From a virus: a DNA stretch of 64,000 nt. The stretch covers positions 32,001-96,000 of the IMG/VR virus record IMGVR_UViG_3300034107_000273; one strand, written 5' to 3'. The notes beneath the pieces are model-generated. The model was not told the origin of the DNA, did no database searches, and saw only the letters and a program-made list of their open reading frames with translations. The position numbers and the translations under genes were made by a program. How positions within the stretch are numbered: position 1 is the stretch's first letter; each line of letters begins with the position of its first letter. Positions 29,849-55,413 of this stretch are shown piece by piece.

Positions 29849-30136
29849 ATGAAGCAACACTTATGGAAAGATGAAGGTGCTTGCTTTGATATGGACACAA
29901 ATTTATTTTTTGATAAATATGAAGACGATGAATTGATTAGACCAATAATAGATAATCTTTGTCAATCATGTCCAGTTCAAAGAATATGTTTTGCCAATGG
30001 TGTATCTGGTAAAGAGTGGGGAATTTGGGGCGGTATTTACCTAGAAAATGGTGAAATATCTAGAGAGTTTAGTAAACATAGAACAAAAGAAAAGTGGGGT
30101 GAAGTATGGAAATCTCTAACAATGGAGAAGAATTAA
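29849..30136 (+). CDS. whiB: WhiB-family Fe-S transcription factor
   Basis: C...FF...CQSCPVQRIC and GIWGG turn. Confidence 0.9.
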   Translation: MKQHLWKDEGACFDMDTNLFFDKYEDDELIRPIIDNLCQSCPVQRICFANGVSGKEWGIWGGIYLENGEISREFSKHRTKEKWGEVWKSLTMEKN

Positions 30137-34739: not shown

Positions 34740-35421
34740 AAATATAACCTCCTCGTTCTGGGCTGCCTAAAATTTCTAATCCAAATTGCTTAGATAGCTT
34801 TTCAACCATAATTCCAAATCTGCCGTCAAAAGATTTATCAAACTCAAGCGTAATATATTTAATCTTTGCAAGTGTTTCAGGTGGCGTATTAATGATAAGA
34901 TCAAACTCAGCACCTTCAATGTCTATTTTTACAACATCTATTTCATCAATACCATATAGGTCAATAAAGTCTTGAATGGTTATTGCTAAAACTTCTACAG
35001 ATTCATCATTTGTTTCATTAATAATGCTGCTATTTCCGCCTTTATTGGTAATAAGAACAGTCTTTTGTTCATGCCAGATAGCATTATTTATAACTGTAAT
35101 ATTTTCTGTTGGATTGTTTTTAATATTTTCTTTTAGTAATAAAAGATTGTTAGGCTCTGGTTCAACAGAGTAAACCTTTATTTTGTTATATTCATCTCTA
35201 ACTTTGTTAAAGTTATCTACATATAAGCTAACGGACCCAATATTTGCTCCAATATCAAGAAAAACTGCATTGTCTTTAAATTGATACTCATGTATTCTAT
35301 AAACATTTTCATTCCATGTTTCATCAATTACCTTATAGTCTAAGTTATGATCATTGCTTGGATCATCAAGAAAACTTCTAATTTCAAATGAGTAGTTTTC
35401 ATTTATTGTTTTATAATTCAT
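34723..35421 (-). CDS. FkbM-family methyltransferase
   Basis: LDIGANIG, VEP, KIDIEGAE. Confidence 0.9.
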   Translation of the reverse strand: MNYKTINENYSFEIRSFLDDPSNDHNLDYKVIDETWNENVYRIHEYQFKDNAVFLDIGANIGSVSLYVDNFNKVRDEYNKIKVYSVEPEPNNLLLLKENIKNNPTENITVINNAIWHEQKTVLITNKGGNSSIINETNDESVEVLAITIQDFIDLYGIDEIDVVKIDIEGAEFDLIINTPPETLAKIKYITLEFDKSFDGRFGIMVEKLSKQFGLEILGSPERGGYIYGNRY

Positions 35422-36359
35422 ATTCCTAGATCCTCTAGTATTTTTTGCCATCTATGTTTATAAGTATAATTACTCTTAACCAAACTATGCCCTGCTAATC
35501 TAATCTTTTCACGTTCATCATCATTCTCAATGTAGTAATCAATTAATTGTTGAAGTTGTTCAAAATTATTATATTCATAAAAAACAACATGCTCTCTATC
35601 AGTAAATTCTTTTTCAAGTCCAGGTACGTATGGGTGTATTAAGAATCCTCCGCGACCAAGAGTTTCATAAATTCTATCTGACCAATAGTCAGGGTAATTA
35701 AAATCAATACATAAAGTATCACCAACCACTACCTTGGTAGACCAATAAAGTTTATTTAGATCTAGCCCTCTTATTGATCTAACTCCACCATTTCCATAAT
35801 GCTCAAATCTATTTCCATATGTTTTGTCTAGCCAATCAATTAATTTTGGACGGTAAGGCCATTCAGAATGATACTTTTTACTACCAACAAATAGAACATC
35901 ATGCTTTTTGGTAACATCCCTAATAGTACATTCAGGACCAAATACACCAGCAGGCAAGTAGTGGCCTTTAACTTCAGTCTTTTCGTTAAACCAGTTTGCC
36001 ATCTGACTATCAACAGTAAAGAAATGATCAATCATTTTGTATACAGGAAATGACTCAAGATCTTTTTGTCTTTGAAGCCCAAACCATAAATCAAGATGGT
36101 ATGTCATGCTTGGAATAGATAAAGTTTTTAATGTTTGAAGAAGTTTTTCCATGCTGATCTTGCCTTGTGTTTCCCAGCCATGTGTGTGTATCCAAATAAA
36201 CAGATCGCTACTTACGCATGCAGCTAAAATATCTTCTGATCTAGCCTCAGACTCTTGCATTCTTATTACATTATGTCCAAGTTCCTCTAAAGATTTTGCA
36301 TGGTGAGATTCGCTTGTGTAGTCAACACGAAAGTTACCTAAAAAAACTATATTTGACAA
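35418..36359 (-). CDS. Glycosyltransferase (CgeB-like GT-B)
   Basis: SDRIYETLGRGGFL, REKIRLAG; probable TTG start after GGGGAA. Confidence 0.8.
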   Translation of the reverse strand: MSNIVFLGNFRVDYTSESHHAKSLEELGHNVIRMQESEARSEDILAACVSSDLFIWIHTHGWETQGKISMEKLLQTLKTLSIPSMTYHLDLWFGLQRQKDLESFPVYKMIDHFFTVDSQMANWFNEKTEVKGHYLPAGVFGPECTIRDVTKKHDVLFVGSKKYHSEWPYRPKLIDWLDKTYGNRFEHYGNGGVRSIRGLDLNKLYWSTKVVVGDTLCIDFNYPDYWSDRIYETLGRGGFLIHPYVPGLEKEFTDREHVVFYEYNNFEQLQQLIDYYIENDDEREKIRLAGHSLVKSNYTYKHRWQKILEDLGI

Positions 36360-36401
36360 CGATTCCCCCATTTTATTATAAAACAATTGTATCATGCTTT
36401 G

Positions 36402-36474
36402 TACCCCTGGCAGGAATTGAACCTGCGACACCAGGCTTAGAAGTCCTGTGTTCTATCCACTGAACTACAGAGGT
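36402..36474 (-). tRNA. tRNA-Arg(TCT)
   Basis: Cloverleaf; anticodon loop CTTCTAA; GTTCAAT T-loop. Confidence 0.9.
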
Positions 36475-36475
36475 T

Positions 36476-36551
36476 TGGAGCGAAAGACGAGATTTGAACT
36501 CGCAACATCTACCTTGGCAAGGTAGTACTCTACCAATTGAGTTACTTCCGC
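36476..36551 (-). tRNA. tRNA-Gly(GCC)
   Basis: Cloverleaf; loop TTGCCAA; encoded CCA. Confidence 0.92.
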
Positions 36552-36555
36552 ATTG

Positions 36556-36628
36556 CTGGTCTGACAGGCTACGATCCTGTGACATCCGAATTAACAGTTC
36601 GGCGCTCTACCAACTGAGCTACAGACCA
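36556..36628 (-). tRNA. tRNA-Asn(GTT)
   Basis: Cloverleaf; loop CTGTTAA; atypical T-loop GATCGTAG. Confidence 0.85.
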
Positions 36629-36632
36629 CTAG

Positions 36633-36706
36633 TGCACCAGGTAGGACTTGAACCTACGACGACCAAATTATGAGTTTGGGGCTCTAACCAACTGAGCTAC
36701 TGGAGC
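36633..36706 (-). tRNA. tRNA-CAT (Ile2 or elongator Met)
   Basis: Cloverleaf; loop CTCATAA; one acceptor-stem mismatch. Confidence 0.85.
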
Positions 36707-36816
36707 TAATACCATTTATTCTTTATCTTGTTTAATACCAATAGTCATTACAAGATATGATAGTCCATACCCTGAAAAGAATGCTATTAATCCAAATACA
36801 AGTGCTTCTGCTGTAT

Positions 36817-37050
36817 TCATTTGTTTTCCTTTTCTAATTCTATTTCATCTCTACGCCAATGTAAAAATGATTTAATATAAACTATGGCATAAGCAATTGC
36901 AGAAAAAATAAAACCATATTGTTTTGTAATTACTGCATAAGTTATCCAAAGAATTTCATTAAAGCAAAGTACAACCCATCCCCATATAGTCTTGCGACCT
37001 ACAAAGTAAATTCCTGCTACGCCTATTACTGCTAATACCCAAGACCACAT
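36817..37050 (-). CDS. PnuC-like small membrane protein
   Basis: Three TMs, GRKTIWGW, QYGF. Confidence 0.6.
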   Translation of the reverse strand: MWSWVLAVIGVAGIYFVGRKTIWGWVVLCFNEILWITYAVITKQYGFIFSAIAYAIVYIKSFLHWRRDEIELEKENK

Positions 37051-37171
37051 TTATGCACCAATGGTTGGCATTATTTTATCACATGGGCACATGATAGATT
37101 CAGCTAAATCACCCTTAGCTTCAATAGTAATCTTTGTCCCGCACTCTGGATCTTCACATACATATATACGC

Positions 37172-37408
37172 TTATTCATTATTTTCCCTTACTTTTTCGT
37201 TTTGTCCTCTTGCAATTGCTGCACACACTTTAAATGCAGCCTTAGTTCTACGACTTTTCATAAAGCCTAAACCGTCCCATACTGGTACAGTAGCCTCAAT
37301 ATCAAGAGCAATCTGCTCTCTAATCTCTTTAACAGTTGTAATGATAAGATCCATTACATAAGCTTTTTGTTCATCATCTAAGTCTTTAGTCCATCCATTT
37401 GTTTCCAT
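37172..37408 (-). CDS. Hypothetical protein
   Basis: Leaderless-type ORF. Confidence 0.55.
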   Translation of the reverse strand: METNGWTKDLDDEQKAYVMDLIITTVKEIREQIALDIEATVPVWDGLGFMKSRRTKAAFKVCAAIARGQNEKVRENNE

Positions 37409-37461
37409 ATGTTAATCATACCAGAAACTCAGCGGTATTGCAAGTGTGGTATGATTATATT

Positions 37462-37626
37462 ATGTATGAATGCGATCACTGGTTAATACCAATAGTATAC
37501 GGATATATGTATGGGGAAATCATTGATAAGGTAGATAACAATGAGGTTGTTTATGGTGGTGCTAGAAAAATTGCAGGCTCACCTGAATGGTTTTGCAATA
37601 GATGCTTGGAAGATATTGATCTTTAA
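37462..37626 (+). CDS. Small Cys-containing protein
   Basis: IPIVYG...WFCNRC; TATGAT upstream. Confidence 0.5.
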   Translation: MYECDHWLIPIVYGYMYGEIIDKVDNNEVVYGGARKIAGSPEWFCNRCLEDIDL

Positions 37627-37824
37627 TTATTGTCTATGCCTTTTCTTATTTCCAAATTTAGCTTTAACCTCAGCCTTAGCCTGATTTACAATTGCGTTCG
37701 TAATGTCTTCAACATTAAACTCTTTCTCATTATCCATTAGTCAATCCTATCTAAATCTTCAAAGCTATTAACACCATACAGATTAATTATTTCTTCAACA
37801 GTAAATTCTAGGTCAAATTGTTTT

Positions 37825-38031
37825 TCAGTATCCATTTAGGCACTCATTTCTCGTGTGATACAGTCTAATCTTTGTCATAATTTTGCGGGATGGGGCAGAG
37901 ATATCCTCTTTACAAGTTAAACATCTATAAGACCATTCACCAGTAAAGAAATCATGTATGTATCCTTTGGCATTGGCATACTTCTTGAATACAAAGGTTT
38001 GAAAAGGATCTGGGATTTCTAGGTTAATCAT
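37825..38031 (-). CDS. Hypothetical Zn-binding protein
   Basis: CLTC...H...C. Confidence 0.55.
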   Translation of the reverse strand: MINLEIPDPFQTFVFKKYANAKGYIHDFFTGEWSYRCLTCKEDISAPSRKIMTKIRLYHTRNECLNGY

Positions 38032-38578
38032 AGTTTTCTTACAAGATCAGCAGCCATTTTAAGACCTTTAACTACACCATCATGATAGTCTTGATTCTTA
38101 ATTATTCTAGCCCTATCCCATACATCATAAGACTCTTGATCTAGTCTATCTGCTATTTCTATTTTTAACATCATTTCATCTAAGCTCATCTTGATCCCAT
38201 TTCTCTGTATTAATTGTATAGTATGTTCCCCACTTTTCATAGGGTTTATTAAGATACTTCCACATTTTTGCATGGTACTTATAAGCCAAACCATTCTTGC
38301 CATCTTCATCATAATCAAAACATTTAACTAAATGATTACCAGCATATCCTCCAAGAAAGTTGCCAAGCCATCTAAGAGGAAGTATCTTTGTTCTGTTTAT
38401 CTTCTGTGACATTCTGAGGAACCCATCTGAGTTTTCCATCTTTATACTCTCTTTCATATCCTAAAGCTTTCCAGTCCATCTGCATAATACGTGGTTCTTT
38501 CATATATTAAGTATACTAAAACAATATAGATATGTCAAGCCTGAAAATACATCTCTATAGATGCTGGAAGTGCCCCAA

Positions 38579-39244
38579 CTACAGCCACTCTTGTTCTCTT
38601 CTTACATCTATATTCCATAAACCGTCTATAGCAAAGTCTTGTGATTTTTTAAGATCATAATATTTTTTATTTTTATGAAAGGTTTCAGCATATCTATTAA
38701 GCAATTCTGAATCACTTTGAATGGTTTGTGATGGTCCAGATGGGGCAACAACTTCAACTGCACGATTATGAAATGTTAATACTTGAGGGTTATCTTGTTT
38801 TGCTATGCGAAAAAATCTTTCTTGATAGTCATCATCTTCACCTGTATATGGGTAAAAATGCTCATCAAATAAGCCAACTTTTCTAACTATATTTTCTCCA
38901 ATAGAAAAACAACTAAATCCTTCACTTGAACCTATTATATTTGATTCACCGCTAACTTCATAAAACTTTTCTAAAGATCCTGGTAGCCAATGTGTATCCG
39001 CAGAAGAAAATAGCCAGTATTTTTCATGAGGATAAAGCTTAATAGTTAAGTTCCACGATCCAGACATTCCTAAATTAGATGGAAGGTTAAGTACCCTAAC
39101 ATTTAAATCTTTTCTCTTAGGTTCGTAATCTTCTTTTCCATTATTGATAATCAATATTTCTTTAATTGGAAAGTCTATTAGGTTTAAATTTTCATCTAAT
39201 AGGTCATATCTGTTTAAAACTGGTATTGATAAAACTGGTATCAT
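38579..39244 (-). CDS. Glycosyltransferase, GT2-like
   Basis: IINNG, NLGMSGSWN, GLFDEHFYP.EDDDY. Confidence 0.75.
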   Translation of the reverse strand: MIPVLSIPVLNRYDLLDENLNLIDFPIKEILIINNGKEDYEPKRKDLNVRVLNLPSNLGMSGSWNLTIKLYPHEKYWLFSSADTHWLPGSLEKFYEVSGESNIIGSSEGFSCFSIGENIVRKVGLFDEHFYPYTGEDDDYQERFFRIAKQDNPQVLTFHNRAVEVVAPSGPSQTIQSDSELLNRYAETFHKNKKYYDLKKSQDFAIDGLWNIDVRREQEWL

Positions 39245-40320
39245 TATGAGGATAAGCCCATTTTTAAATGATGGTCGCATACGTCTGCAATGATATACTC
39301 TTCGTTATCTAGTATTACATCAAAGTACTTGGCATCTTTCTCGCAGTACACGCATTTTCCTGATTTCATATATCTATCATATCATATCTGGTTTTAAGTT
39401 CGGCGACGATATAGAGGTATCAAACCTTACATGCTCCAAAGGAGCACTATTGGTTAGCATCCACATCTTTGTCCCATATTATTAAACACTTTGTACAGGT
39501 AATACCTGCATCCCTCATATACCAAGTATGCTTACACATTCCTGTATTTCCAATTTAGCAGGGTATATATGAATTCACCGTACCACTTATGAGAACAACG
39601 CTTAATCCCATTCATACCATAATGATCCATCATAAATAAAGTTAGCTTTGTTTTGCTTTTGGTTCTAATGAACTTACCACAATCAATACATGCCTGAAAA
39701 ATGTGCATAGGAAGTGGCTTATCGTAATCTACTTTCACATTAACTCCTTTTCAATAGCCCTAATAGTTGGACAAGGATATGACCATTCATCGCATTCCAT
39801 ACAATTTGTTCCCCATGAACCGTCAGGTAAAGTTATTTCCTGTGGCTTATGTAATTCTAGGACAGAACGTATAACTATATATGGATGGTTTAGGGTTCTA
39901 CTATTCATATAGGTTTGGCTTTTTGTAGCCTCTAATAATTCATCATGTGTCATTTAGTACACCAGATCCTTCCATCACTCATGGTTTGATGAGTCTCCCA
40001 AAATAGGGGATCTTTATGGCTCATCTCACATTTTTGACATTCGTTTTTCTTCATAAAACAAGCATACCCTATTTTGGAGGGGAAGTCAAATTAAGGATAT
40101 CCACCATTCCAGATGACATCCCAAGAGATTGTATTATAATATAGAGCATCTACTGGAGTGCCATTTGCGTCATAGAAACCACCATCAACATAGGTAAATG
40201 GCTCAATATATGTATTATCATATACTTGGATAGGAGCAATCTTAGCTTTCACAATGACAACATGTGGATCAAAGTAAGATTCTATATTTGGTTTTTGTTG
40301 CTTAGATATTATTGTGAGCA

Positions 40321-41458: not shown

Positions 41459-42343
41459 GGTTTGTTATCTAAGCACATATATATATGATAGCATACTGGT
41501 TTTACTGGGCTATATATAGGGTTTGAAGGCTTATTTGATACTAGATATGGGGTTTGAAATGAGAAATAAATCTTACTGACATTTTTTAGATATGGTTTGG
41601 GTGGAGGAAAGTGGAGGATAGTGGGTTATTGGGCGCTTATACAGATGGCGTCGTAATGTCCACGGCTTTAAAACCTCCTATCATAAAACCTTTCCTTTGT
41701 CAAACCTTCTCTTTCTGGCATGGAGTATATCATCCAAACCTCTATTTGTCAAACCTTTATAGCTTAAAAGCCCTATAAAAAACCTATACAAAACCAGCCG
41801 AAATGTCCAATAATATAATAGAAAGGTTTGATAATATTTAAAAAGATATCCAAAACCAGGAGAAAAGGTTTGTTATTCTATAGGGAGTAAAAGGTATGTG
41901 GTTTGTCTTATATCCCCCGTCAAAAACGGGGACGCTAAAGCGTTGATCGTAATGTCTGATAGGATTATTAGCGCCTTCTGGCACGGGACTTAAAGAGATA
42001 TAAGAACTATACCTATAGTAACCAATAGAGTAATAAACCCTGTAGCTATAAATATAAACAAATCATAGTCTGGTTTGATATCATGTGGATCTTCATGAGA
42101 GTGGGTATGCTGAGAAAAACCATCATTAATAAAATATGGTCCACCGTGTTTTGAAAAATGATTTCTACCCATAAAACCATTATAACATGGTTTGACAAGG
42201 ATGGTTTGATATGATATAAGCTATGAATCTGGAAAAATATTTGAAGCTTCGTAATGTCCATGAATCTGGAAAAAATTTTGAATGCTCGTAATGTCTGAAA
42301 ATGGGAAAAATTTGGACATATCGTAATAAGGTTTGAAGGTTTG
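41459..42343. repeat. Cluster of GGTTTG/CAAACC and TCGTAATGTC motifs plus a 37-bp tandem duplication
   Basis: About 15 GGTTTG; 4 TCGTAATGTC; duplication 42223-42259 / 42260-42296. Confidence 0.7.
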
Positions 42344-42402
42344 GATCGGGACCCCTCGGGCACAACGGCAGGCTTTTGTCAAGCCCACCGCTGGCATCAC
42401 TA

Positions 42403-42615
42403 TTAGAATAGTTTGTATTGGTTGTAGTTATTGTACCGCTCTTGCATTGTGTGTTCCGCTGAGTCTGCAATAGTAATTAAACGATTGTAGATTACATTTG
42501 GTGATGACTCTGCAAGATACTGCCCTATCAAATCAAGGTCTAACCTTAAGTCTGATAGAACATTAGATAGTTGGATTGCTACCTTTTCTTCCTTTGTTAC
42601 CAGTTTTCGTCTCAT
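42403..42615 (-). CDS. Hypothetical protein
   Basis: GAAGGAG SD. Confidence 0.6.
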   Translation of the reverse strand: MRRKLVTKEEKVAIQLSNVLSDLRLDLDLIGQYLAESSPNVIYNRLITIADSAEHTMQERYNNYNQYKLF

Positions 42616-42697
42616 GGTTCTCCTTCATTTCATTGTACCAAAAATAAGGGGGGAGCGCAACCCACCACAAATCGCACTCCCCCGTTGCAGCGTTTGT

Positions 42698-43066
42698 TTA
42701 TACCACTGCGTGCTCAGGCAAATATGCTTGGATAAACTTATCCCATTTGACAGGAACATTATCAGTTACTGTCTTGTTAACAAAATCAATGACGACTGTC
42801 TGGTCTCCTAAATCATAGTTAGTACCATTAATCGCATAGATTCCAAATCCATGCTCATCTAAAATATTATGCTGAATGAGATAACTAATTATCATACGTG
42901 TGCCATATGAAGCATCATTCCAACGTGGCTTGGCATGCTCTAGCGCTTGTGCAATATCAGTCTCCCATCCAGTCTGGCCCCAGTGACTGTATAGAACAAC
43001 AGATACGGAGGGCTCTCCTACTGCAGGATCTGAATCTTTAAAAACAAAGTTAATTCTTGCTCCCAT
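42698..43066 (-). CDS. Conserved phage hypothetical protein
   Basis: LYSHWG, PRWND.SY. Confidence 0.65.
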   Translation of the reverse strand: MGARINFVFKDSDPAVGEPSVSVVLYSHWGQTGWETDIAQALEHAKPRWNDASYGTRMIISYLIQHNILDEHGFGIYAINGTNYDLGDQTVVIDFVNKTVTDNVPVKWDKFIQAYLPEHAVV

Positions 43067-43311
43067 TATTCTTGCTCCTCAATCTCTGTAACTTGTAGTG
43101 GAAACCAATCGTATGCATAATCTTCAACATCTTCAGTTAATTCAATACGATTAATCTCAGCAATTGCAGAGGCTTCATCTTCTGACTCAATCTCAAACTC
43201 ATAGTAAGTTTCTCTAGTGGCAGTTATTTTGTATAGTGGCATTTTCTTCCTTTTCTGTAGTAGTTACTTCAATTGTACCAAAATCTAGGGGCAGTGTCAA
43301 TTCTTCCCACA

Positions 43312-44001
43312 TTAATTGCTCCTGTCGTCATAGGCCTTTTGGTGTGCCTCACACATGTCACTGCTCCAGCCACAGTGTGGGCATGGATAGTCTGAACAGT
43401 CATCACAGTCAATGATTTGGCTATCCTCATAGGTACCGTCACAATCATTGCATTGGTTGTCATACATTGACTCACTAATTATCTTACCACGCAAGAGTTC
43501 ACACTCTCCACCCCAGCCAGTCTCTTCTTCGTATGACAAAGTAAATAATAAATCAGGGTACTGTTCAGAAAGATTAAGTAGAGCAGGCATTGGACGAGAC
43601 CATGCTGTATTAAAGTTATAGTGAACAACGTGGTTCTCACCATTGACTGTATCTTCAACGGTAGTATCAGGGTATTCATTATCTGAAGATACCGCTACAT
43701 CCCACTTAGTACCCCAGTTACGAACATTCCAGTTATACCAATCATCACCCTCAAAGGTAATTGGTAGTTCTGGTGTATGTACAGGCTGACTGTCATAGGT
43801 ATCTAGATTAGTAGGCTTAACAATGTTCCAGAATGCAAAGACAGGGTTTGGATACGTTACCTGTTGTTTTTCCATTTGATGTGTCTCAGTGCTCCAGTTG
43901 TCATGAACACGAACGAATGGTTGATTAAGTTGGTCCATCATTTTCTTGACAGACTCTGGATTGCCTTCTACAGTTAATCCGTTAAATACCCAGTTTGGCA
44001 T
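43312..44001 (-). CDS. Api92/YubB ferredoxin-like domain protein
   Basis: MPNW, WYNWNVRNWGTKWD, FNTAWSRP. Confidence 0.8.
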   Translation of the reverse strand: MPNWVFNGLTVEGNPESVKKMMDQLNQPFVRVHDNWSTETHQMEKQQVTYPNPVFAFWNIVKPTNLDTYDSQPVHTPELPITFEGDDWYNWNVRNWGTKWDVAVSSDNEYPDTTVEDTVNGENHVVHYNFNTAWSRPMPALLNLSEQYPDLLFTLSYEEETGWGGECELLRGKIISESMYDNQCNDCDGTYEDSQIIDCDDCSDYPCPHCGWSSDMCEAHQKAYDDRSN

Positions 44002-44233
44002 GGTGGTTCTCCTTTATTTGTTGGCGGTCTATACTTAAATTATACGTCAAGCAGTATAGGTCTGTCAAGCAGTCTTTGTACCCCTCTGCCCACTGTTTAT
44101 CTTCAAACTCTTTATCTTGCATTTCATTCATCATATTCTTTAACTCGCCGTGCAGGATATCAATTAGAGGAATGCTAAGATCTTCCATAGCACGTTCTAA
44201 GTGCTTGGGTAGGAATGGATACTTATCACTCAT
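43982..44233 (-). CDS. Hypothetical protein
   Basis: GGAG SD. Confidence 0.55.
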   Translation of the reverse strand: MSDKYPFLPKHLERAMEDLSIPLIDILHGELKNMMNEMQDKEFEDKQWAEGYKDCLTDLYCLTYNLSIDRQQIKENHHAKLGI

Positions 44234-45263: not shown

Positions 45264-45340
45264 TGGCGATCCGTACGAGACTTGAACTCGTGACCTCTAC
45301 CGTGACAGGGTAGCGCTCTAACCAACTGAGCTAACGGACC
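45264..45340 (-). tRNA. tRNA-Asp(GTC)
   Basis: Cloverleaf; loop CTGTCAC; encoded CCA. Confidence 0.92.
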
Positions 45341-45383: not shown

Positions 45384-46400
45384 TTATGCAATCTGCATTA
45401 CGTTTTGCACAACTTTTAGCAAACGATTTTTTTCTGCGTTAATTGCAGGGTCAAAACCACTTGCACTAGCAAGAATACTTTCGTTATTCCCACCACGTGC
45501 AGAACGATACCAGTCAAGGCGTTCTGTTAGTGCATTGAAAGCACCCCATGCGTTACCAGCAATCATGCCGTTAAACTCGCCTGTATAAATGTCGTTAATA
45601 ACATCTACCTTGTTTTCCCATTTCTTGAAAGCACCCTTTGAGTCCTTTTCAGGCTTAGGGTATGCAGAAAGGATAATGTCATTGAAAGACTTAGCATTGA
45701 CTTCTTTTTCAATCATTGCCTTAGCCATGATGTCAAATTCATCCATGTAAGCATTAGCAAGACCAAGAGTCTGTCGTGCAATAGCAACCTTACCGCTTGC
45801 TGTCTGTGTGTGACGTATCTTGAAAGATTGCTTGATACCATTCTTACGCTTTTTCTGATTAAGTGCAAGATTGAGAGTGTTAGCGCACACAACACGAACA
45901 GGTGTAATGCTTGCTTGAATAGCGATAGAGCCGTCATGTGATGTGTTGATAAGTAAATAAGTCTTTACCTTATCTGCAACACCGCTAGGGTCTAGAACAG
46001 TTTCACGCTCTAGTGCTAGTGCGCCAAATACTACACGACCGCCCTTGATTGAGCCAGCAGTTTCCCAACGACCTCCGCCGTCTAGAATGTTATCACCAAA
46101 TGAGAACAAGTCCTCATTCTGCATAACGTGGTAACGCTCACCAACGACACCAAGAATGTCTGTCTGAGAGTTGTCAGTAGGATTGGTACGCAATACATAC
46201 TGATAGTTTTTATCGCTTGTTAAGTGTGATGGAGTTTGCAAATCCTCTAGACGAACATTCCACCCATTGAGGTTAGCAAGAGCCAACATCTCTGATGTGT
46301 TTTTTTCCTCTGTAAAGACTGTACCCAATCCATGCCATGCAGGCTCTCTAAATGAAGCAAAAGAGGTCTTGCCGTTTTGTATTTCTAGGTCATGTGCCAT
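45384..46400 (-). CDS. DUF932 (TIGR03299-like) phage/plasmid protein
   Basis: PAWHGLG, WETAGSIKGG, SHDGS, PVRVVCANTL. Confidence 0.88.
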   Translation of the reverse strand: MAHDLEIQNGKTSFASFREPAWHGLGTVFTEEKNTSEMLALANLNGWNVRLEDLQTPSHLTSDKNYQYVLRTNPTDNSQTDILGVVGERYHVMQNEDLFSFGDNILDGGGRWETAGSIKGGRVVFGALALERETVLDPSGVADKVKTYLLINTSHDGSIAIQASITPVRVVCANTLNLALNQKKRKNGIKQSFKIRHTQTASGKVAIARQTLGLANAYMDEFDIMAKAMIEKEVNAKSFNDIILSAYPKPEKDSKGAFKKWENKVDVINDIYTGEFNGMIAGNAWGAFNALTERLDWYRSARGGNNESILASASGFDPAINAEKNRLLKVVQNVMQIA

Positions 46401-46625
46401 GAGTTTATTTTCCTTTTCTTTTTGTAGTTATTTTAAGTATAGCAGGATAGGCTGACAAATGCAAAGCGGGATAGTTAAAAATGGGAAAAAATGGGGATTA
46501 TTTTAATGTGTCGTAAATCACAGTGTGAGCTTGATCACGCCCCCCGAGCCGCTTTTTTATGCAACGGCATAAATAAAAATAAGGAGCAGTTTTAAAACAT
46601 GCTCAGGTTTATTAGTAGCCCCCTA

Positions 46626-47057
46626 CTAAATACTTACTCTCTCAATGGAAGAGGATAGGTATTGAACTGAGTCTGAACTATAATCAACAGTATCAAAATC
46701 AATTTCATGAATTAAGTTTTGTGCCTCTTCTTCATTACGTGCATTAACTGTAATTGAATACTGAACTTCAACTTCTAGTTCAAATTCTTTTGTTAATTCA
46801 AAACCGCAAATGTCTGCAATTTCTTGTGCTTCTGACTCATTAAGCGTACCTGCTTCAATGGCTTCAAAGGTCCATTCTTGCATTGCTTCTACCATACGAT
46901 TATGCTCTGCTGCTAAGCCGTATGAACGTTGTGTTACTACGCTGATGTGCTTTTCTAGTTCATCTATGCGTGTTTTGTTTGATGCTAACTGTGACTCAAG
47001 GAATTCTCTTGTCAAGTACATTGGCTTTTCTGTTGTTTCTGTGATTGGTTGGTCCAT
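46626..47057 (-). CDS. Hypothetical protein
   Basis: Own promoter; VNARNEEEA domain. Confidence 0.65.
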   Translation of the reverse strand: MDQPITETTEKPMYLTREFLESQLASNKTRIDELEKHISVVTQRSYGLAAEHNRMVEAMQEWTFEAIEAGTLNESEAQEIADICGFELTKEFELEVEVQYSITVNARNEEEAQNLIHEIDFDTVDYSSDSVQYLSSSIERVSI

Positions 47058-47121
47058 AAGGGCTACCTCTTTCTGTTAGTTGTTTAGTTTAATTGTACTG
47101 CAGGGCACTGACAAATGTCAA

Positions 47122-47619
47122 TTACCAAGATGATGCATAAGAAAATGACAACTTATCAATTTCTGGTAGGGCAAATAGGCGTTCTAATTGACGGATAGTA
47201 TTCTTGATATCATTCCAATACCATTCATCAATATCTGTACCACCAAAGAAAAATCCTGCTTGTGGTGGAAATAGGCTAGGGTCTTTAGTTTCTAGCGCAT
47301 GCTTACACAGTGCAAGCAATTCTATTAGTTTATCTTGTGAGACATAGTAGTCTCCACAGTCATCAATACCATTCTGAACATTCTTGACAAACCAAGCATG
47401 TATCTGATTAGCCTTGCGCCAATAAGCACAGGTAACTTCTACACTTGCTCCATAGATATCTGTTGCAACATCTGTGAGTTGTGTCAATGCCATTAGGTCA
47501 TTGAACTTAGGATATACGGCTTCAGGTGATGAATAAGATAATTCATCATTTGCTTGGAGCGCTTTCCAATTAATTTTTTCTAAATGCTTCTTAGCACTAA
47601 GGTACATGTCTAATCCCAT
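47122..47619 (-). CDS. Conserved phage hypothetical protein
   Basis: MGLDMYL, YWRKANQIHAWF, GFFFGG. Confidence 0.75.
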   Translation of the reverse strand: MGLDMYLSAKKHLEKINWKALQANDELSYSSPEAVYPKFNDLMALTQLTDVATDIYGASVEVTCAYWRKANQIHAWFVKNVQNGIDDCGDYYVSQDKLIELLALCKHALETKDPSLFPPQAGFFFGGTDIDEWYWNDIKNTIRQLERLFALPEIDKLSFSYASSW

Positions 47620-47887
47620 GGGGGCTTCCTTCTTTCTGTTGTTCTGATATTAATATAATTCTAGCAGGTTGGACTGACAAATGCCAATCGTAAATCCTGG
47701 GATCTTAAATAGTGGTACGTAAAGGGTGTGATTAAATTCACATGAGCTCGGGGGCAAAAAGTGAACAGTTTTAATTCATGTTCAGGAATGCACCGCCTCG
47801 CTATAGCACTGGCAGTAACTTTGTTGAGCAGTTTTGCAACCTACTCAGGTTGTTTGGGTTCAGGACTTTAATTGCCTCCCAAATTAT

Positions 47888-48310
47888 TTAGAGATAACGA
47901 GCAACCGCATTGTAAGTGCTTGTGCTAACTACTTCCTCATCTGTCATCTTTAGGATACGAATAGCATTAGAGATTTCCTCTTTCTGCTCACGATAGTTAT
48001 AAACAGAGATTGACTCAAAATCCCTCTCAGGCTCTTTAGGTAAATCCTTGTCTGATACTGTTAGGTCGTAGTCAATGTTGAGAGTGTTGTTCCAGTTGCG
48101 ATAGTTAGTGCGAAAGTTTTCAGCCTTCTTGATGTTAGCAACCGCATAGTCGCTAATCTCTTTCTGCCAAGCCTTACGCAACTTTTCATACTTTGCTTCG
48201 TTTGCTTCTTGTGATGCGTAGTCTGCTTCTAGTTTAGCAAGTGCTACTTCTAGTGCCTTGATTACCTTTGGTGTTGCTATCTTTACTGAGATTGCTTTTT
48301 GACGTGCCAT
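47888..48310 (-). CDS. Hypothetical protein
   Basis: Own promoter. Confidence 0.65.
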   Translation of the reverse strand: MARQKAISVKIATPKVIKALEVALAKLEADYASQEANEAKYEKLRKAWQKEISDYAVANIKKAENFRTNYRNWNNTLNIDYDLTVSDKDLPKEPERDFESISVYNYREQKEEISNAIRILKMTDEEVVSTSTYNAVARYL

Positions 48311-48416
48311 GTGTTTTTCTCTTTTCTTTGGTGGGTTATTTATAGTATAGGGGTTGGGTGTGACATTTTTAGTGTGAGCAGTTTTAATTCATACTCAGGA
48401 ATAAGCAATTAACTAG

Positions 48417-48584
48417 TTACGCTTGGGCTTTCCATGTTGTCCAGCGTGTGTTGCCATTAACGTCTAACTTAACACGAACTGTATCCTTTGATGTTGGTGC
48501 GATTTCAAGGATTGTTCCTGTTACCTTTGACTTTTGTGATGTGTAGAGGTCGCCTACCTTGTATGTGTTTGTTGCTACTGTCAT
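48417..48584 (-). CDS. Small SH3/KOW-like protein
   Basis: YKVGD...TGTILEI; AGGAG SD. Confidence 0.55.
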   Translation of the reverse strand: MTVATNTYKVGDLYTSQKSKVTGTILEIAPTSKDTVRVKLDVNGNTRWTTWKAQA

Positions 48585-48771
48585 TTTATTTCTCCTTTTT
48601 AGTTTGTTGTATGTATTAAGTATAACATTTCCCACTGACATTTTTCAACTCCATTTCTGTTATTTCTCACTATTTGAGACGCTTGCGGGTGTGATGTAGG
48701 TCACTATTGGTAAATCAGGAACACTAATAGGGCTATTATGAATAGCGGAATTATGCTTTCCATTTATCTCC

Positions 48772-49494
48772 TTACTTTTTACTTGATGAGAATACAACGT
48801 CACTCTTTGAGTATACACAAAGTGAGCAAGAAACGCAAGCGGAGCCTTGTTGAGAGATTAGGGGAATGGCTTTTTTATTCTCAGGACACTTTGCCCCTAC
48901 CTTGCCAATCATCTCTTTCATGTCTGCTTGTCCTACTTGAAAGTTTTTTGCGAGGTATGCAAGACGAATACCATGATCTGTTTTAAGACCAATACCTATA
49001 GCCTTGTTTTCGCTATCTGTAGAATAGTATAAAGATAGATTAGGAATATCTTTAAGCATTACCGCTGCACTCTTCACTCTTGTATAAACCCAGAATTGAA
49101 TTTCAGGATTATTAAGGATGACATGCTTCCATGCGAATGTATAAGTATCATTAAAGAAGTCGCCGTCCCAATGAATACGGAATAGCATAGGGGCTTCACG
49201 CTTTACACAATCAGCCTTGAAGTCTGCAATCATCTCTTCAAGCAATGCTTCAATAGTATCATGATCAGCGTCTTTAACTAATTCCCAATTATGTAATAGG
49301 TTTTTCTTTACTGTTGGGAATACCTTTTCCAATTTGCCTGCATAGCAAACACTCTCGCAGACACTCGTTGCGCCAGGACATGAATAGTTTTTTCCTGCAG
49401 GTAGTCCAAAGGTGTTGGCGATACTTGCTTGTTTTCCATTAGGGGTGACGGCATTAGCGACCTTTCTGTCTTTGCTTCTGAGTAGTTTAGTCAT
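48772..49494 (-). CDS. Gp88-like Fe-S (radical-SAM-like) phage protein
   Basis: FGLPAG..SCPGA..CESVCYA, FRIHWDGDF, WVYTR. Confidence 0.7.
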   Translation of the reverse strand: MTKLLRSKDRKVANAVTPNGKQASIANTFGLPAGKNYSCPGATSVCESVCYAGKLEKVFPTVKKNLLHNWELVKDADHDTIEALLEEMIADFKADCVKREAPMLFRIHWDGDFFNDTYTFAWKHVILNNPEIQFWVYTRVKSAAVMLKDIPNLSLYYSTDSENKAIGIGLKTDHGIRLAYLAKNFQVGQADMKEMIGKVGAKCPENKKAIPLISQQGSACVSCSLCVYSKSDVVFSSSKK

Positions 49495-49723
49495 GGTGGG
49501 TTACTCGCTTTCTTTCTTTAATTTTAGCATTTGGGACTGACATTTTTTTCTATTGTATTTCTTTTTATTTGGAACAGCTGAGGCTGCATTAGAACGGCGA
49601 AGTTCCATTAACCTTCTTAATTCCTCAGAATTTTTCTTCATAACTTAATCTTATCAGAAATGGGAAAAAATATCAAATCTCTTAAATGTGATCAATCTCA
49701 CAGGGCCCCCTCGGGCCGTTTTT

Positions 49724-49957
49724 TCAATCTAAATAAACGTACCAATCAACTTCATCATCAAATGCAAACTGAACAATTTCTGATTCACCAAAATCATTTG
49801 TTATTTGAATGTCATAGTTATCTCCTGTTGAATCACTTTCAATAAAAGTAATTTCAACAATCTCATCACCATAACCAATTAGATCCCCAATCTGTAGTGC
49901 ATCTACAGTTAGCGAATCTGCTTTGACTAGTTCCATGTCAATCATTGTAGCACTCAT
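49724..49957 (-). CDS. Acidic hypothetical protein
   Basis: LQIGDLI; GGAG SD. Confidence 0.55.
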   Translation of the reverse strand: MSATMIDMELVKADSLTVDALQIGDLIGYGDEIVEITFIESDSTGDNYDIQITNDFGESEIVQFAFDDEVDWYVYLD

Positions 49958-50098
49958 TTAGATAAACTCCGCTAAATCTCTATCCATTATTTCATTCATG
50001 TCCACTCCTTGAGTTTCTGCTATGGCTTCCCATAGGTCTGATTCTGTATAGTTTCCATCAGGATACCATTCTGCTAAAAGTGAGTATAAGTCTGTCAT

Positions 50099-50422
50099 TT
50101 ATTCTAATCCCAATCCTAATTCATAGCCTGCATCTTCTTCCCAATAGTCTGCCTCATCTTGTGGCAACCATGGGTCTAAGTGGTGTTGTTCAATAATTGC
50201 AAACGCTGGAGCGTGGCTCATTCCCTTATAGAATACTCCGTCTGGCATCGCAATCTGGCGCATGGCATCATTTTCATGGTATGCGTCAATAGCATCTATG
50301 CAAGGCTGAACCATGCTTAGTGGTACTGGTGGATAGTGATTACCTTGTAAGTGATAACCAATAGCCTGTTCAAGTGTTATGTCTAGGTTTTCTGCTAAGT
50401 CCATCGCTGTATTGTATCCCAT
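50099..50422 (-). CDS. Hypothetical protein
   Basis: HLQGNHYPPVP. Confidence 0.65.
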   Translation of the reverse strand: MGYNTAMDLAENLDITLEQAIGYHLQGNHYPPVPLSMVQPCIDAIDAYHENDAMRQIAMPDGVFYKGMSHAPAFAIIEQHHLDPWLPQDEADYWEEDAGYELGLGLE

Positions 50423-50640
50423 TATCGTGTTACCACCATTCCTGTTTTGTAGAAAGTTTTTGTGTGCATTTTGCCTGAAGGTTCAGACAAGTTAATTGTT
50501 GAGTATTCATTAGCAAGTCCATGGTCAATAAACTTTTGATAAACTTCAACGGCAGATAGGCAATCGCTATAACGACCAACCCAAGTAGTAGTAGGGTCTG
50601 AGTCATAGGTACAAGTGACTGAGTATAGGTATTCGTTCAT
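50422..50640 (-). CDS. Hypothetical protein
   Basis: Coupled ORF. Confidence 0.6.
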   Translation of the reverse strand: MNEYLYSVTCTYDSDPTTTWVGRYSDCLSAVEVYQKFIDHGLANEYSTINLSEPSGKMHTKTFYKTGMVVTR

Positions 50641-50831
50641 TAGTTATTCTCCTTATAGTTTTCGTTCATTATACTTTCAGCATACCATGCACAGTATTCA
50701 TTTTCAAGCGACACGCCCTTGTTGCAATCGCAAAATTCTGAGTCGTATTCCTCGCCACCATTACCAAAAAAGAGGACACCCTCATCATGGCAATCAACGC
50801 AATCAACCAAAAAGTCTAGTAAGTTTCCCAT
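50640..50831 (-). CDS. Small Cys-rich protein
   Basis: CVDC...CDC. Confidence 0.6.
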   Translation of the reverse strand: MGNLLDFLVDCVDCHDEGVLFFGNGGEEYDSEFCDCNKGVSLENEYCAWYAESIMNENYKENN

Positions 50832-50835
50832 TTAT

Positions 50836-51045
50836 TTATTCTCCAATCTTTACGGCTACTGTAGCCCAAAAGTCTTTTATGCCACGTGTTGGCGATACCT
50901 GAATTGCATACGCCTCAAAGTCTGAGCCGTACCAAACTGAGTCACGCTTTTCAGCATGAACAACAACACCCTCATCATGGCGAGAGTGTGAGCGATAGTA
51001 TTTTCCTACTAGTAGGCTTTCTATTGTATAAGGTTTTGCTGACAT
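50836..51045 (-). CDS. Hypothetical protein
   Basis: First gene after the promoter at 51090. Confidence 0.6.
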   Translation of the reverse strand: MSAKPYTIESLLVGKYYRSHSRHDEGVVVHAEKRDSVWYGSDFEAYAIQVSPTRGIKDFWATVAVKIGE

Positions 51046-51273
51046 TAGCAACCTGCTTTCTTTTTGTTTATTTAACTTATTACTCTGTAATCCTATCATG
51101 CGAGGCAGACAAAAAACTAATTACTAGCGAGTAATCTTAAATAGTGAGACGCTCAGAAAATGTGAGAAAAATCACAACCACGTAAAGTTATCCACAAGAG
51201 CCTGTGGAAAACCCCCCGAGCTTTTTTATTTGAAAAGATCAAGCAGTTTTAAAACTTGCTTAGGTTTTTTATT

Positions 51274-51480
51274 TTATTTTAGTAAAGCGTGTAATTCTGG
51301 CAGTTGGCAAATTTCTTTTGTGCAAGCATCATAGAATTTATTTTCATCAAATCTAGGATTGTCTGCACTGAACCATTCACTGAATTCAAAAATTAAATCT
51401 TGAAAAGTTTTTAATTCAATTTCATTTGCAAACTGATTTAGAATTTTTGCAGTTTCAACGTAGTCTTTACGTGTCATCAT
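51274..51480 (-). CDS. Hypothetical protein
   Basis: MTRKDY...DNPRFD. Confidence 0.65.
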   Translation of the reverse strand: MMTRKDYVETAKILNQFANEIELKTFQDLIFEFSEWFSADNPRFDENKFYDACTKEICQLPELHALLK

Positions 51481-51640
51481 TATAGGCTCACCAATTTTTC
51501 TACATAGTGTGAAATTTGATTGTATGCATTAGCGCATTGATAACAATAAGTCTCAGTAGGAATTCCACCAAGCATTAGCGCATCAATTCCTGAATAAACC
51601 AACTCTGTTGAGTTGCAATTAATTACTTGACACTCTTTCA

Positions 51641-51844
51641 TTATTCTGCCACCTTTAGAATTGCGTATGAGCCATTTTTATTTATTTCATCAAGAATAGG
51701 TTGCAAGCGTGAGCCAACCAATTCCTTTAGCATTTCTTCAAGCATTTGGACTTGCTCTTGCTTAGGAAGTGCAGCCATTGCCAGTGTGATAGGGTGTCCT
51801 GATTTGAATTCTGTTACGAATTTTAGATTATGTTCAACGTTCAT
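51641..51844 (-). CDS. Hypothetical protein
   Basis: ORF in operon context. Confidence 0.55.
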   Translation of the reverse strand: MNVEHNLKFVTEFKSGHPITLAMAALPKQEQVQMLEEMLKELVGSRLQPILDEINKNGSYAILKVAE

Positions 51845-51863
51845 TTATTTTATTTCCTATTCT

Positions 51864-52061
51864 TTAGTTTGAGTTAGTAAGTGTGCGAGTGCCACGTAGT
51901 GTTCCTGTAACACCTAGGGCATCACAAGATAGTTTTACAGATACGCCAACAGGTAATTGTGTTGGGTATTGTGAGATGAATTGAGCAACAGCACCTTGTG
52001 AGGCGAAGTTGATTTTTTTTGTTGAACCTGAAAAGGTTTCTAGTGTTACAGTGTAAGTCAT
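51864..52061 (-). CDS. Hypothetical protein
   Basis: GGGAG SD; own promoter. Confidence 0.6.
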   Translation of the reverse strand: MTYTVTLETFSGSTKKINFASQGAVAQFISQYPTQLPVGVSVKLSCDALGVTGTLRGTRTLTNSN

Positions 52062-53896
52062 TAAGTGACTCCCTTTCGTTTGTTTGATAAGACTATCTTA
52101 CCATTTGGGGCTGACAAATTAGGGCATTTATTTGCTAGGCTCATTGTGATTTGCATCACACTTATTTGCTAGGCTCACTGCCTTATTTATCTTTATTTAA
52201 TTGTTATACCTACAAGGGTACCAGATAAGTTTCAGGAAGTCAAAACGACACGCCGTAAAATGGGAAAAAATTTGTGTGACCTTAAACACATAAGTTATAC
52301 ACAGCCTGTGGAAAACGCCTCGGGCCGTTTTTTATGCATGGATCTGAATTTTTATAAATTAGATTTCCAATAAATAAAACCAAACACAATCATTGCAATC
52401 ATTACAACCAACATTTTTTATTCTCTTTCTAATTCTGTGTAATCAACAACAACAAAATCAAGTCGTTCCAATGGAATAACTTTTAACCAAGATAGTGCAG
52501 ACTCAAAGTTATCATCCTCAATGGTGACGGATAAATCAAAATTAAAAACTGGCATTATTTATTCTCCTTATAAAGAAAGTCCCACGCCTTACGGCATAAC
52601 ACAATTGAATTGCAATTGTCACAACAGATAACACCATGCTCATTTAATTCTAAATCATACATGTCAATCATGGCAGTTACTGCACCACATACAGATTTTA
52701 CAGGCACATAGGTACTCATTATTTCTCACACTCACATTCTAAAGCAGATAGGTCAAAGTCGCAATGCTTGCAACCTTGAAACAAAAAGTGTTCATTGCAA
52801 TAAATTGCAGTTTGCATTTCCTCGCAACACAAGAATTGTTTTGTGCCACGCAAAAAGACATTTGTTAAAGACATAGGGAAAAGGACAAGTGTAGGGGTAC
52901 TCATTAGTTACTCACATACCAATCTGTCCATGTAGGGAATTGTTCAGGGTCACTATCATAGTAGTAACGCTCAATGTTATTTTCACAATCCATGCAGAAA
53001 GTAAATTGTTCATCTCCAATTTCAGAGATAGCGGAAAGCATAGGTTTATGCTCATGTGTTTTTGTTAATGTAGTCATTTTATGACCACCTTTCTTTAGCG
53101 GATTTCTTTACCACTTTTATTTTCTTATACTGCAAGTATAGCCTATAAGTCTGACATTTATCAACCTACTAGCCAGTAATTCCAGATAGTGAGACGCTCA
53201 AGTAATGTGATAAAGGACACACTTACTTAAAGTTATCCACAGAAGTTATCCACAGGCGCCCCGAGCAAAAAATCGCAGCTTTTTATTTCTGCGATCTTTT
53301 TTTATTTATAAATTACTTTGCGAATAAATAAAACCAAAAACAATAAATGCAATCATCACAACTAACAATTTATTTCTCCTCAATTTCATCTAGTAGATCC
53401 CATAGTGCAGTTTCTAATTCTTTAGAAACTAAATCTAATTTTTCTTGTAGTGTTTTCATTCTGCATTCTCCAATTCATTTATGTCTGCGACATAGACATT
53501 GTTTTTATTTATTCCATAGTTTAATTGGAATTCAAATACAGTGATAGCCTCATCATAGGAATCAGCCTCAACGTTTATGAAAGTATTAAATTCAAATGTA
53601 GCCATTCTTTATTCTCCCTTTATAGTGTTTTTCCGCAGTGGTTACAAGGTTTTCCTTGGTGGTCTATGCTAAGGGCATCATAGTTTGTGCCCTTCCAACA
53701 ATGGTGGCATACGATTACAAAGTCCATTATTCTGTTACCGCCTTATCTGTTATCATTTTAAGAATTAACTGTAACTGTTCTGTAGTTAGTAGTGCTTGAG
53801 CGCAACCCCAAGCAAATGAAAGCGCAAGCGCACTATCTCCATAGTGCTCATTAGCAAGAGTGTTTATCTCTTGCGTTATCTCAAAATTAGTTTTCA

Positions 53897-53992
53897 TTAT
53901 TTATTTTCTTCTTTCTTTAGTAGTGATAGGGCAAGGGCAAGACTTTGCTTGCGCTGGGCTTCTACGTGAGCCTTGTATTCTTCAAGTGTCAT
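53897..53992 (-). CDS. 31-aa microprotein, copy 1
   Basis: MTLEEYKAHVEAQRKQSLALALSLLKKEENK; GAAAGG SD. Confidence 0.7.
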   Translation of the reverse strand: MTLEEYKAHVEAQRKQSLALALSLLKKEENK

Positions 53993-54243
53993 TTATCTGA
54001 CCTTTCTTTTTCTTTATACTGTAATTGTAGCATGGGGGTCTGACAAATTGGGGGATATCCATGGGCGTGTCGTAGAATTATTTTTGTGATGTTGGTCACA
54101 AACGGCCCGAGCAAAATTTGCAGCTGTTACACTGCAAATCTTTTTTTACTTATTGCCAAACATGTTAAATATTTCATCAACCTGTTCATCAGTTAAGTGA
54201 TCTAACTGAATTGCTTTTTCAAATTCAAAGAAATCTTTTTCCA

Positions 54244-54438
54244 TTATTCTGTTTCCTCGTTTTCTTCTAGTGCATCTTGAAAGTCATAGAGTGCCTCATT
54301 GTATGCGATTGGGTCGCACTCTTTTAGTATTTGCGAAGGGTAAAAAGTTAATTGTCCTATAGTTACAACAGGATAAGAATCATCTAGCATTTCATCAAAT
54401 AATTCTTTACTAGCGAAAGCCATTTCAAAATCTAACAT
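54244..54438 (-). CDS. Acidic phage hypothetical protein
   Basis: FDEMLD...PSQILKECDPIAY. Confidence 0.65.
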   Translation of the reverse strand: MLDFEMAFASKELFDEMLDDSYPVVTIGQLTFYPSQILKECDPIAYNEALYDFQDALEENEETE

Positions 54439-54584
54439 TAGTTTTCTTCTTTCTGTAGTAGGTAAGTATTAGTTAGGGAACGATTATTATTTGAGAACAT
54501 AGACTCTATAACCGCTTTATCTTTTAGTGATTGAGCAATTCTTTTATCTTGTTGCTCTTTTAGAATTCTATCAAATGTGCTCAT
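54438..54584 (-). CDS. 48-aa protein, copy 1
   Basis: MSTFDRILKEQ...SMFSN...YLLQKEEN; paralog at 55414. Confidence 0.7.
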   Translation of the reverse strand: MSTFDRILKEQQDKRIAQSLKDKAVIESMFSNNNRSLTNTYLLQKEEN

Positions 54585-54676
54585 TTGTCTGAGCCTTTCT
54601 TTAGTAGGGACATGGCTTGCAAGGTGCTTGCCTTGCGTTGCGCCTCAACGTGCGCCTTGTATTCTTCTAGTGTCAT
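54581..54676 (-). CDS. 31-aa microprotein, copy 2
   Basis: MTLEEYKAHVEAQRKASTLQAMSLLKKGSDK. Confidence 0.7.
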   Translation of the reverse strand: MTLEEYKAHVEAQRKASTLQAMSLLKKGSDK

Positions 54677-55413
54677 TTATTTAACGACCTTTCTTGTTGT
54701 TTATACTAGCAATTCTAGCATGGGGGTCTGACAAATTAGCCTATTTGTTAGGGTGTGTCGTGTGTGACCTTAGTCACGCCACAGGAATGGATTACCTGTA
54801 GCCTCATAGCCGTCACGCCATGAACAGCGAGGATAGACAGTGTGACTAGAAACATAGCCACACTCTGGGCAGATAACGTTTGCTAGTCGTGAGCGCATGG
54901 TTTCATAGCCCTCTGCATTTCTATTTTCAAACAGTGAGTTCATTTGGAACTCCTTTCTTTATTTTCTTTATACTAGTATTCTAGCACCTACCACTGACAA
55001 ATTTGGAGATTTTTTGGGCGTGTCGTAGAACTATTTTTGTGATCCTCATCACATGGCCCCCGAGGCGTGTGAGCGACATCACATGCGACACGCCGTGTTT
55101 AGATTTGCTTTTGTCAGTCCTAACTGTTATACTTGCAGTATTAGATAGTTAAAGTATAACTACTAAACGAAAGGTCACTAACATGAACCCATTTACAGCA
55201 CTACAAGATTTCCTAGATGAGAATGTCGCTTACGGACTAATTGGAGCCTTCATAGGCGTAGCAGTAGCCGTTATCCTATGCCTTACGCTTGGAGCGTGAC
55301 ACACATCACACAACGCCAACGGCGTGTCGCCTTGACTTTTCAGGGTATGTATGATACCCTTACAGGTATAACAATTAAATAAGATTAACTAACTAACAAG
55401 AAAGGTGTTCAGA

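Follow-up and report, generated by a model that had tools for sequence, protein, structure and literature searches.

A block of about 40 small genes in an uncultured virus is served by a recurring promoter element which, in our judgement, probably belongs to the PafBC type of actinobacterial DNA-damage promoters. The element, a TGTCAG box followed by a -10 hexamer in the arrangement TGTCAG-N10-TANNNT, was studied in a window of 64 kb that comprises bases 32001-96000 of the 107,956-bp virus record IMGVR_UViG_3300034107_000273. The window contains 13 promoter-like copies, 11 of them exact and 2 deviating by one base in the box (TGTCAC at 48344 and TGTCTG at 51090). Because box, position and spacing are the same as in the published PafBC motif, we consider it likely that these 13 sites are "sigma adaptation" (RecA-NDp) promoters in a phage, which would be read by the PafBC of the host together with the housekeeping polymerase. 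The identity of that host, the dependence on PafBC, the trigger and the timing are deduced here from sequence.

The PafBC motif determined in vivo, tGTCgg(N10)tA(N3)T, has its 5' part at -28 to -23 and lacks a -35 element; its GTC triplet is read by residues R46 and R50 of PafB, with PafBC placed between the DNA and sigma region 4 (PMC8635444). The activator is constitutively present, and it is single-stranded DNA that makes it active (PMC11804915, PMC10693628). An earlier note on this DNA had quoted the consensus accurately. When compared to such RecA-NDp (recA P1-type) promoters (PMC8635444, PMC11804915), the phage copies share TGTC(A/G)G at -28 to -23, 10 nt before TAnnnT, as well as the invariant GTC and flanks like those of recA promoters from candidate hosts. 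As for the -35, most copies lack it, as the classical promoters do, but about 40% have a -35-like hexamer. The phage copies differ in driving small genes of unnamed families and not repair genes, in having a strong extended -10, and in their leaders of 19-50 nt with Shine-Dalgarno sites, several host copies appearing to be leaderless.

Exact matches to the pattern amounted to 12 in the window, where about 1 would be expected. In dinucleotide shuffles of the window, matches averaged 0.98 and never exceeded 4, so that none of 100 shuffles reached 12. In the whole genome 13 matches were found, 12 of which fall within one 8.7-kb stretch. Re-scanning of the window reproduced all 11 exact coordinates of the earlier note as well as its two variants, and additionally yielded an exact match at 51023-51044 on the minus strand that was absent from its list. 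The TGTCAG of this additional match lies within the ATGTCAG start-codon context of the gene at 51045 and, since it overlaps this start codon, the match is probably due to chance and was not counted as a promoter. Twelve of the promoter-like copies, from 46436 to 54978, face left (minus strand), and the single copy facing right, at 55112, is divergent from this series and located in the same intergenic region. Each of the 13 copies is followed by a purine-rich Shine-Dalgarno sequence and then a start codon, 19-50 nt past the predicted start site; the observation of the earlier note is confirmed. Among the genes of the block, PHROGs and Pfam recognised only DUF932, GP88 and unnamed families. The individual promoters are listed in the table, together with a contrasting class of promoters and a marker gene of the same phage.

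Table. Promoters of the box block and further features discussed in the text (nt, nucleotides; aa, amino acids).
Feature	Position (strand)	Sequence features	Gene or remark
Box promoter 1	46436..46457 (-)	TGTCAG-CCTATCCTGC-TATACT; TTTGCA -35-like at 18 nt	DUF932 gene 45384-46400
Box promoter 2	47092..47113 (-)	Hybrid; perfect TTGACA 18 nt upstream of -10	143-aa gene 46626-47057
Box promoter 3	47658..47679 (-)	Hybrid with TTGGCA	165-aa gene 47122-47619
Variant box promoter	48344..48365 (-)	TGTCAC	140-aa gene 47888-48310
Box promoter 5	48619..48640 (-)	TGTCAGTGG; TTGAAA -35-like	Small gene starting at 48584
Box promoter 6	49521..49542 (-)	Without -35	GP88-family gene 48772-49494
Variant box promoter	51090..51111 (-)	TGTCTG	Operon of about 6 small genes, 51045 down to 49724
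Box promoter 8	52095..52116 (-)	Without -35; CRP-type palindrome centred near -64.5	4 small genes, 52061 down to 51274
Box promoter 9	53135..53156 (-)	Hybrid with TTGATA	Small Cys-rich genes from 53077
Box promoter 10	54024..54045 (-)	Without -35	Small genes from 53992
Box promoter 11	54712..54733 (-)	Without -35; spacer equal to that at 54024 (paralogous cassette)	Small genes from 54676
Box promoter 12	54978..54999 (-)	TTGTCAGTGG...TGCTAGAAT	57-aa gene 54770-54943
Box promoter 13, divergent	55112..55133 (+)		38-aa membrane peptide starting at 55183
Contrast class, canonical promoters	41724..44068 (-)	TTGACA-N17/18-TAnnnT at 41752, 43300 and 44068; without TGTCAG	Just downstream of the box block
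WhiB-family gene	29849..30136 (+)	95 aa; above Pfam cut-off	Marker of an actinobacterial host

The box was also analyzed in related phages. The DUF932 gene at 45384-46400 has 384 relatives in IMG/VR, and we therefore regard these viruses as an abundant environmental phage group; the 80 phage fragments carrying the best of these relatives (90-100% identity) were taken as related loci. With A or G allowed at position 5, the pattern has 572 copies on the strand of the genes, as compared to 49 on the opposite strand, and a reversed control yielded 9. If the search was anchored on TGnTAnnnT alone, TGTCAG led all other hexamers at spacing 10, where it accounted for 248 of 2882 unique contexts and had no competitor, and it peaked at no other spacing. 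At spacing 17 the most frequent hexamer was TTGACA, and these separate peaks define two distinct promoter classes. A logo of 440 unique contexts reads A(-31) W W TGTCAG H S S ... T G n TAnAMT T, with A in 96% and G in 4% of the cases at position 5, never G at -22, C or G at -21/-20, and TG at -15/-14. In each of five complete relatives (105-114 kb), the copies are confined to a single strand and to a single block of 8-9 kb.

An alignment of the promoter before the DUF932 gene across 26 distinct variants provided a footprint of what is conserved. GTC is retained in 25 of these 26 variants, position 5 is A or G and rarely another base, the 10-nt spacer is free, and the -10 hexamer is TATACT or TATGAT. 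Nearly all of the 26 variants (from the loci L009-L088) also contain a second conserved element, AAATGTCC(G/A)ATTT, about 45 nt upstream of the box; its distance from this DUF932 promoter box is also given as about 75 nt, with a position of about 46490-46510 in the window.

Since the phage, which was obtained from lakes and has a GC content of 36.5%, carries a WhiB-family gene and a DnaE-type polymerase sharing 52-55% identity with its counterparts in Streptomyces phages (Wakanda and BillNye, among others), it is classified as an actinophage. WhiB proteins are confined to actinobacteria and their phages (PMC10202952), and a gene of the mycobacteriophage GP88 family sits in the box block. Near-identical cultured phages were not found in the phage collection, and no lysogeny module is visible in the window. 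For the phage PstS-like gene, the best cellular matches (36-37% identity) come from Candidatus Planktophila and other small lake Actinomycetota genomes. The host is therefore probably an actinobacterium of the lake acI/Nanopelagicales kind, and we infer a low-GC lake actinobacterium rather than Mycobacterium. Bacteria of the acI/Nanopelagicales reportedly have no CRISPR spacers (PMC10202952).

Members of this candidate order, Candidatus Nanopelagicales, possess pafBC, which the earlier note had suggested looking for in candidate hosts. HTH_PafC was detected in 61 of 61 genomes, and each of three candidate host genomes contains two tandem WYL genes and no other WYL genes. The first of the two encodes WYL and WCX domains and the second HTH_PafC, WYL and WCX domains. 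The product of the first gene aligns over its full length with M. smegmatis PafB as contained in the polymerase complex 7P5X (E 1e-38), and the segment RMFERDK, which holds R46 and R50, is kept in the candidate host PafB. In a Planktophila genome, the tandem WYL genes are immediately followed by tatC and by genes for a lipid kinase and a helicase, an arrangement that agrees with the mycobacterial order pafBC-tatAC-helY.

Upstream of recA, the exact promoter architecture was present in 19 of 30 sampled genomes of this order and in 2 of 3 other candidate-host genomes. Fifteen unique host recA promoters have A at position 5 in 14 cases, T or C at -22, G or C at -21/-20 and TG at -15/-14. These preferences equal those of the phage logo, and among the phage copies box promoter 12 is closest in sequence to the host recA promoters. 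Further host boxes precede a DEDD exonuclease gene in two genomes, at 6-7 nt from its start codon, and a gene for a YneA/ChiZ-like division inhibitor, and this set of genes looks like a DNA-damage regulon. Whole-genome counts of the pattern in host genomes were no higher than in the reversed control, and the informative host copies are only those before recA, the exonuclease gene and the ChiZ-like gene; a handful of boxes per 1.3-Mb host genome compares with 13 in 9 kb of phage DNA. Several host sites (L190, L200, L188, L192, L195 and L210) are situated just 6-7 nt before the start codon, which suggests that they may give rise to leaderless transcripts. In the host recA promoters (L149-L178), the -10 hexamer TACCTT is immediately followed by TCGA, resembling the start of an actinobacterial LexA box; if this is what it represents, recA of these lake bacteria would be under the control of both PafBC and LexA.

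A protein encoded by the phage might read TGTCAG instead of the host activator, in a middle system like that of MotA/AsiA and possibly through a phage WhiB-like protein docking on sigma region 4, and the likeness to PafBC promoters would then reflect convergence or deliberate competition. The phage does possess a WhiB gene and dozens of small proteins of unnamed families, the ordinary TTGACA promoters of its replication and structural genes could express such a factor first, and the position of the box resembles that of the T4 MotA box near -30 (a comparison quoted from PMC8635444). However, all 6 bases of the box, the 10-nt spacing, the A/G at position 5 and the flanks equal those of host PafBC promoters, and convergence by chance is unlikely. 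Profiles for WYL, HTH_PafC and sigma-70 region 2 gave no match in the phage genome (MotA and AsiA families were not searched), and tblastn with host PafB and PafC returned nothing better than E = 6, which led us to reject a phage copy of PafB/PafC. To our knowledge, no WhiB protein reads a box at -26. We consider a phage-encoded reader rather unlikely.

Control of the block by LexA was discarded as well. For the SOS box TCGAAC-N4-GTTCGA, the window contains one match, at 33827, with 2 mismatches and outside of the block, when 0.73 would be expected, and hence no LexA box beyond chance.

The sites might also be ordinary housekeeping-sigma promoters relying on an extended -10, aided in some cases by a weak -35, with the box serving as the operator of a later-acting repressor or as a spacer element that tunes promoter strength. 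Most copies indeed have a strong TGn extended -10. In 39% of the family boxes, a hexamer matching TTGACA at at least 4 of 6 positions is found 17-18 nt from the -10, as compared to a background of 9.5%; of the 13 copies in the window, 6 have such a hexamer (46436, 47092, 47658, 48619, 53135 and 55112). Nevertheless, 61% of the family copies are without a -35-like hexamer, a repressor operator would not usually be asymmetric, keep a constant distance of 10 nt to the -10 and be identical to a known activator site, and canonical promoters of the same genome, such as the ordinary TTGACA-N17/18 promoters that precede replication and structural genes, need no box. One relative (L061) lacks the box and has TTGACT 17 nt from the -10 instead; this is a swap between the box class and the -35 class, which fits a purely sigma-dependent promoter. 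Taken together, we judge this explanation improbable. The sequence TTGTCA was rejected as a misplaced -35, as its distance of 11 nt to the -10 is too short for sigma region 4 and true TTGACA-N17 promoters are present in the same genome.

The earlier note had argued that the copies are not plain duplications. This stands for most copies, whose flanks cannot be aligned, and fails for three pairs with alignable flanks (51090/53135, 54024/54978 and 54024/54712), which are local duplicates and of which one, 54024 and 54712, is the only pair with an identical spacer. Although these three cassette pairs share flanks and two copies share the spacer, the view that the sites are functionless chance matches or remnants of cassette duplication is refuted by the tests for enrichment (12 matches versus 0.98 expected, a number reached in no shuffle) and conservation (a strand bias of 572 versus 49 in relatives, retention of the box while the spacer drifts, and mostly unalignable flanks), and we assign it practically no probability.

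If the 13 sites are PafBC-type promoters, their activation could proceed as follows. Host RNA polymerase with its housekeeping sigma factor would bind the extended -10 TGnTAnAMT. The host PafB-PafC heterodimer, although always present, would become active only once its WYL domains bind single-stranded DNA, which might stem from the entering, nuclease-attacked or replicating phage genome. Active PafBC would then insert between sigma region 4 and the DNA and read TGTCAG at -28 to -23 in place of a -35, whereby the block of about 40 small genes would be switched on or boosted when the DNA alarm of the cell rings. The phage would thus borrow PafBC from its host, as suggested by the fact that no such factor was found encoded in the phage. 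The hybrid copies with a -35 probably provide a PafBC-independent basal level. The words "early" and "takeover" that had been attached to the box genes are guesses; as ordinary promoters precede the genes for replication and structure, those of the box block could equally form a middle class that is triggered once replication makes single-stranded DNA.

A more far-reaching version, for which we see somewhat less than an even chance, is that a lytic phage makes PafBC essential to its own programme: entry, nuclease attack or replication would activate PafBC, which in turn would activate the 13 promoters, possibly including those of counter-defence genes, and PafBC-polymerase would be drawn off the host repair regulon. 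No earlier case would then be known of a virus that exploits a "sigma adaptation" factor of its host rather than bringing its own.

Several points weigh against an activation by host PafBC. The requirement of PafBC for single-stranded DNA is awkward for genes that must fire first. Classical PafBC promoters lack a -35, unlike the hybrid copies that make up 39% of the family boxes, and the swap in relative L061 indicates that the box is not indispensable for promoter function. The host itself is presumed from a PstS identity of just 36-37% and from the actinophage markers, and the GC content of the phage is about 10 points below that of the candidate hosts. In the Streptomyces phages Wakanda and Riptide, which are the closest cultured phages by DnaE, 1 and 3 pattern matches were found, no more than in controls, and the trait was therefore not inherited from that wider family. 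Finally, the many phage proteins of unnamed families might include a factor that reads the same box, a possibility to which we give little credence.

Among known systems, the middle promoters of T4, with a MotA box near -30 and a -10, likewise have a box in place of the -35 and act through sigma region 4 with the housekeeping polymerase of the host. In T4, however, activator and co-activator are encoded by the phage and remodel sigma, whereas here no WYL, PafBC or sigma homologue was found in the searches described above and the box equals the site of a host activator. At the SiwR promoter of M. smegmatis (PMC10693628), a WYL activator acts at -26 with both -35 and -10 present, as in the hybrid copies; an activator of this kind can thus work at a promoter that has a -35. 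SiwR differs in that it recognises a GGA triplet in a palindromic context and serves a single local operon, and the candidate hosts checked have only the two pafBC WYL genes. Temperate phages wired to the SOS system (LexA/RecA) similarly couple phage expression to a DNA-damage signal of the host; those switches work by relief of repression, mostly in prophage induction, while the phage studied here would employ activation through a different sensor.

The earlier note knew of no description of such promoters in a phage, and a literature search likewise found no paper on PafBC-type promoters in phages; a 2025 paper on PafBC and mycobacteriophage resistance is cited in PMC12848934. Phages are known to take over sigma with proteins of their own or to listen to LexA/RecA, and the use of a host sigma-adaptation activator is undescribed. 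Should the promoters indeed require PafBC, the DNA-damage sensor of the host would set the timing of an entire gene block in an abundant group of lake phages. PafBC would then be a host factor for infection, and its loss or alteration a possible route to resistance. For the dissection of PafBC promoters, the phage family also provides natural variants by the hundreds, some with a -35 and some lacking it, and the match between phage box and host regulon box may help to assign hosts to uncultured actinophages.

Other recurring sequences were noted in the window. Eight exact TGTGA-N6-TCACA palindromes, corresponding to the CRP/GlxR-type consensus, occur between 44448 and 55083, all inside the promoter block, when 0.12 would be expected. 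Their centres are located at about -53.5, -64.5, -74.5/-75.5, -83.5/-85.5, -94.5 and -104.5 from the predicted starts, that is, in steps of roughly one helical turn, which suggests a possible second layer of control by host factors. An element GCTCGGGG / CCCGAG(C) recurs at about 46540, 47750, 49710, 51225, 52320, 53270, 54110 and 55060, after A/T-rich cassette ends and just before palindromes, and may mark the junctions of cassettes or form the stem of a terminator. Three perfect DnaA-box nonamers (TTATCCACA) at 51188-51196, 53233-53241 and 53246-53254 lie just after terminator-like GC stems, upstream of the box promoters at 51090 and 53135; their enrichment is weak (3 versus 0.98 expected, with 5 of 100 shuffles reaching 3).

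Outside of the block, five tRNA genes were found on the minus strand at 36401-36706 and 45264-45340, with Arg-TCT, Gly-GCC, Asn-GTT and Met-CAT in a row and Asp-GTC adjoining the DUF932 gene. The tRNA cluster is adjoined by a run of glycosyltransferase genes (GT2 and GT1-like; 32255-39280, minus strand), the products of which may serve in the modification of DNA or of the cell surface.

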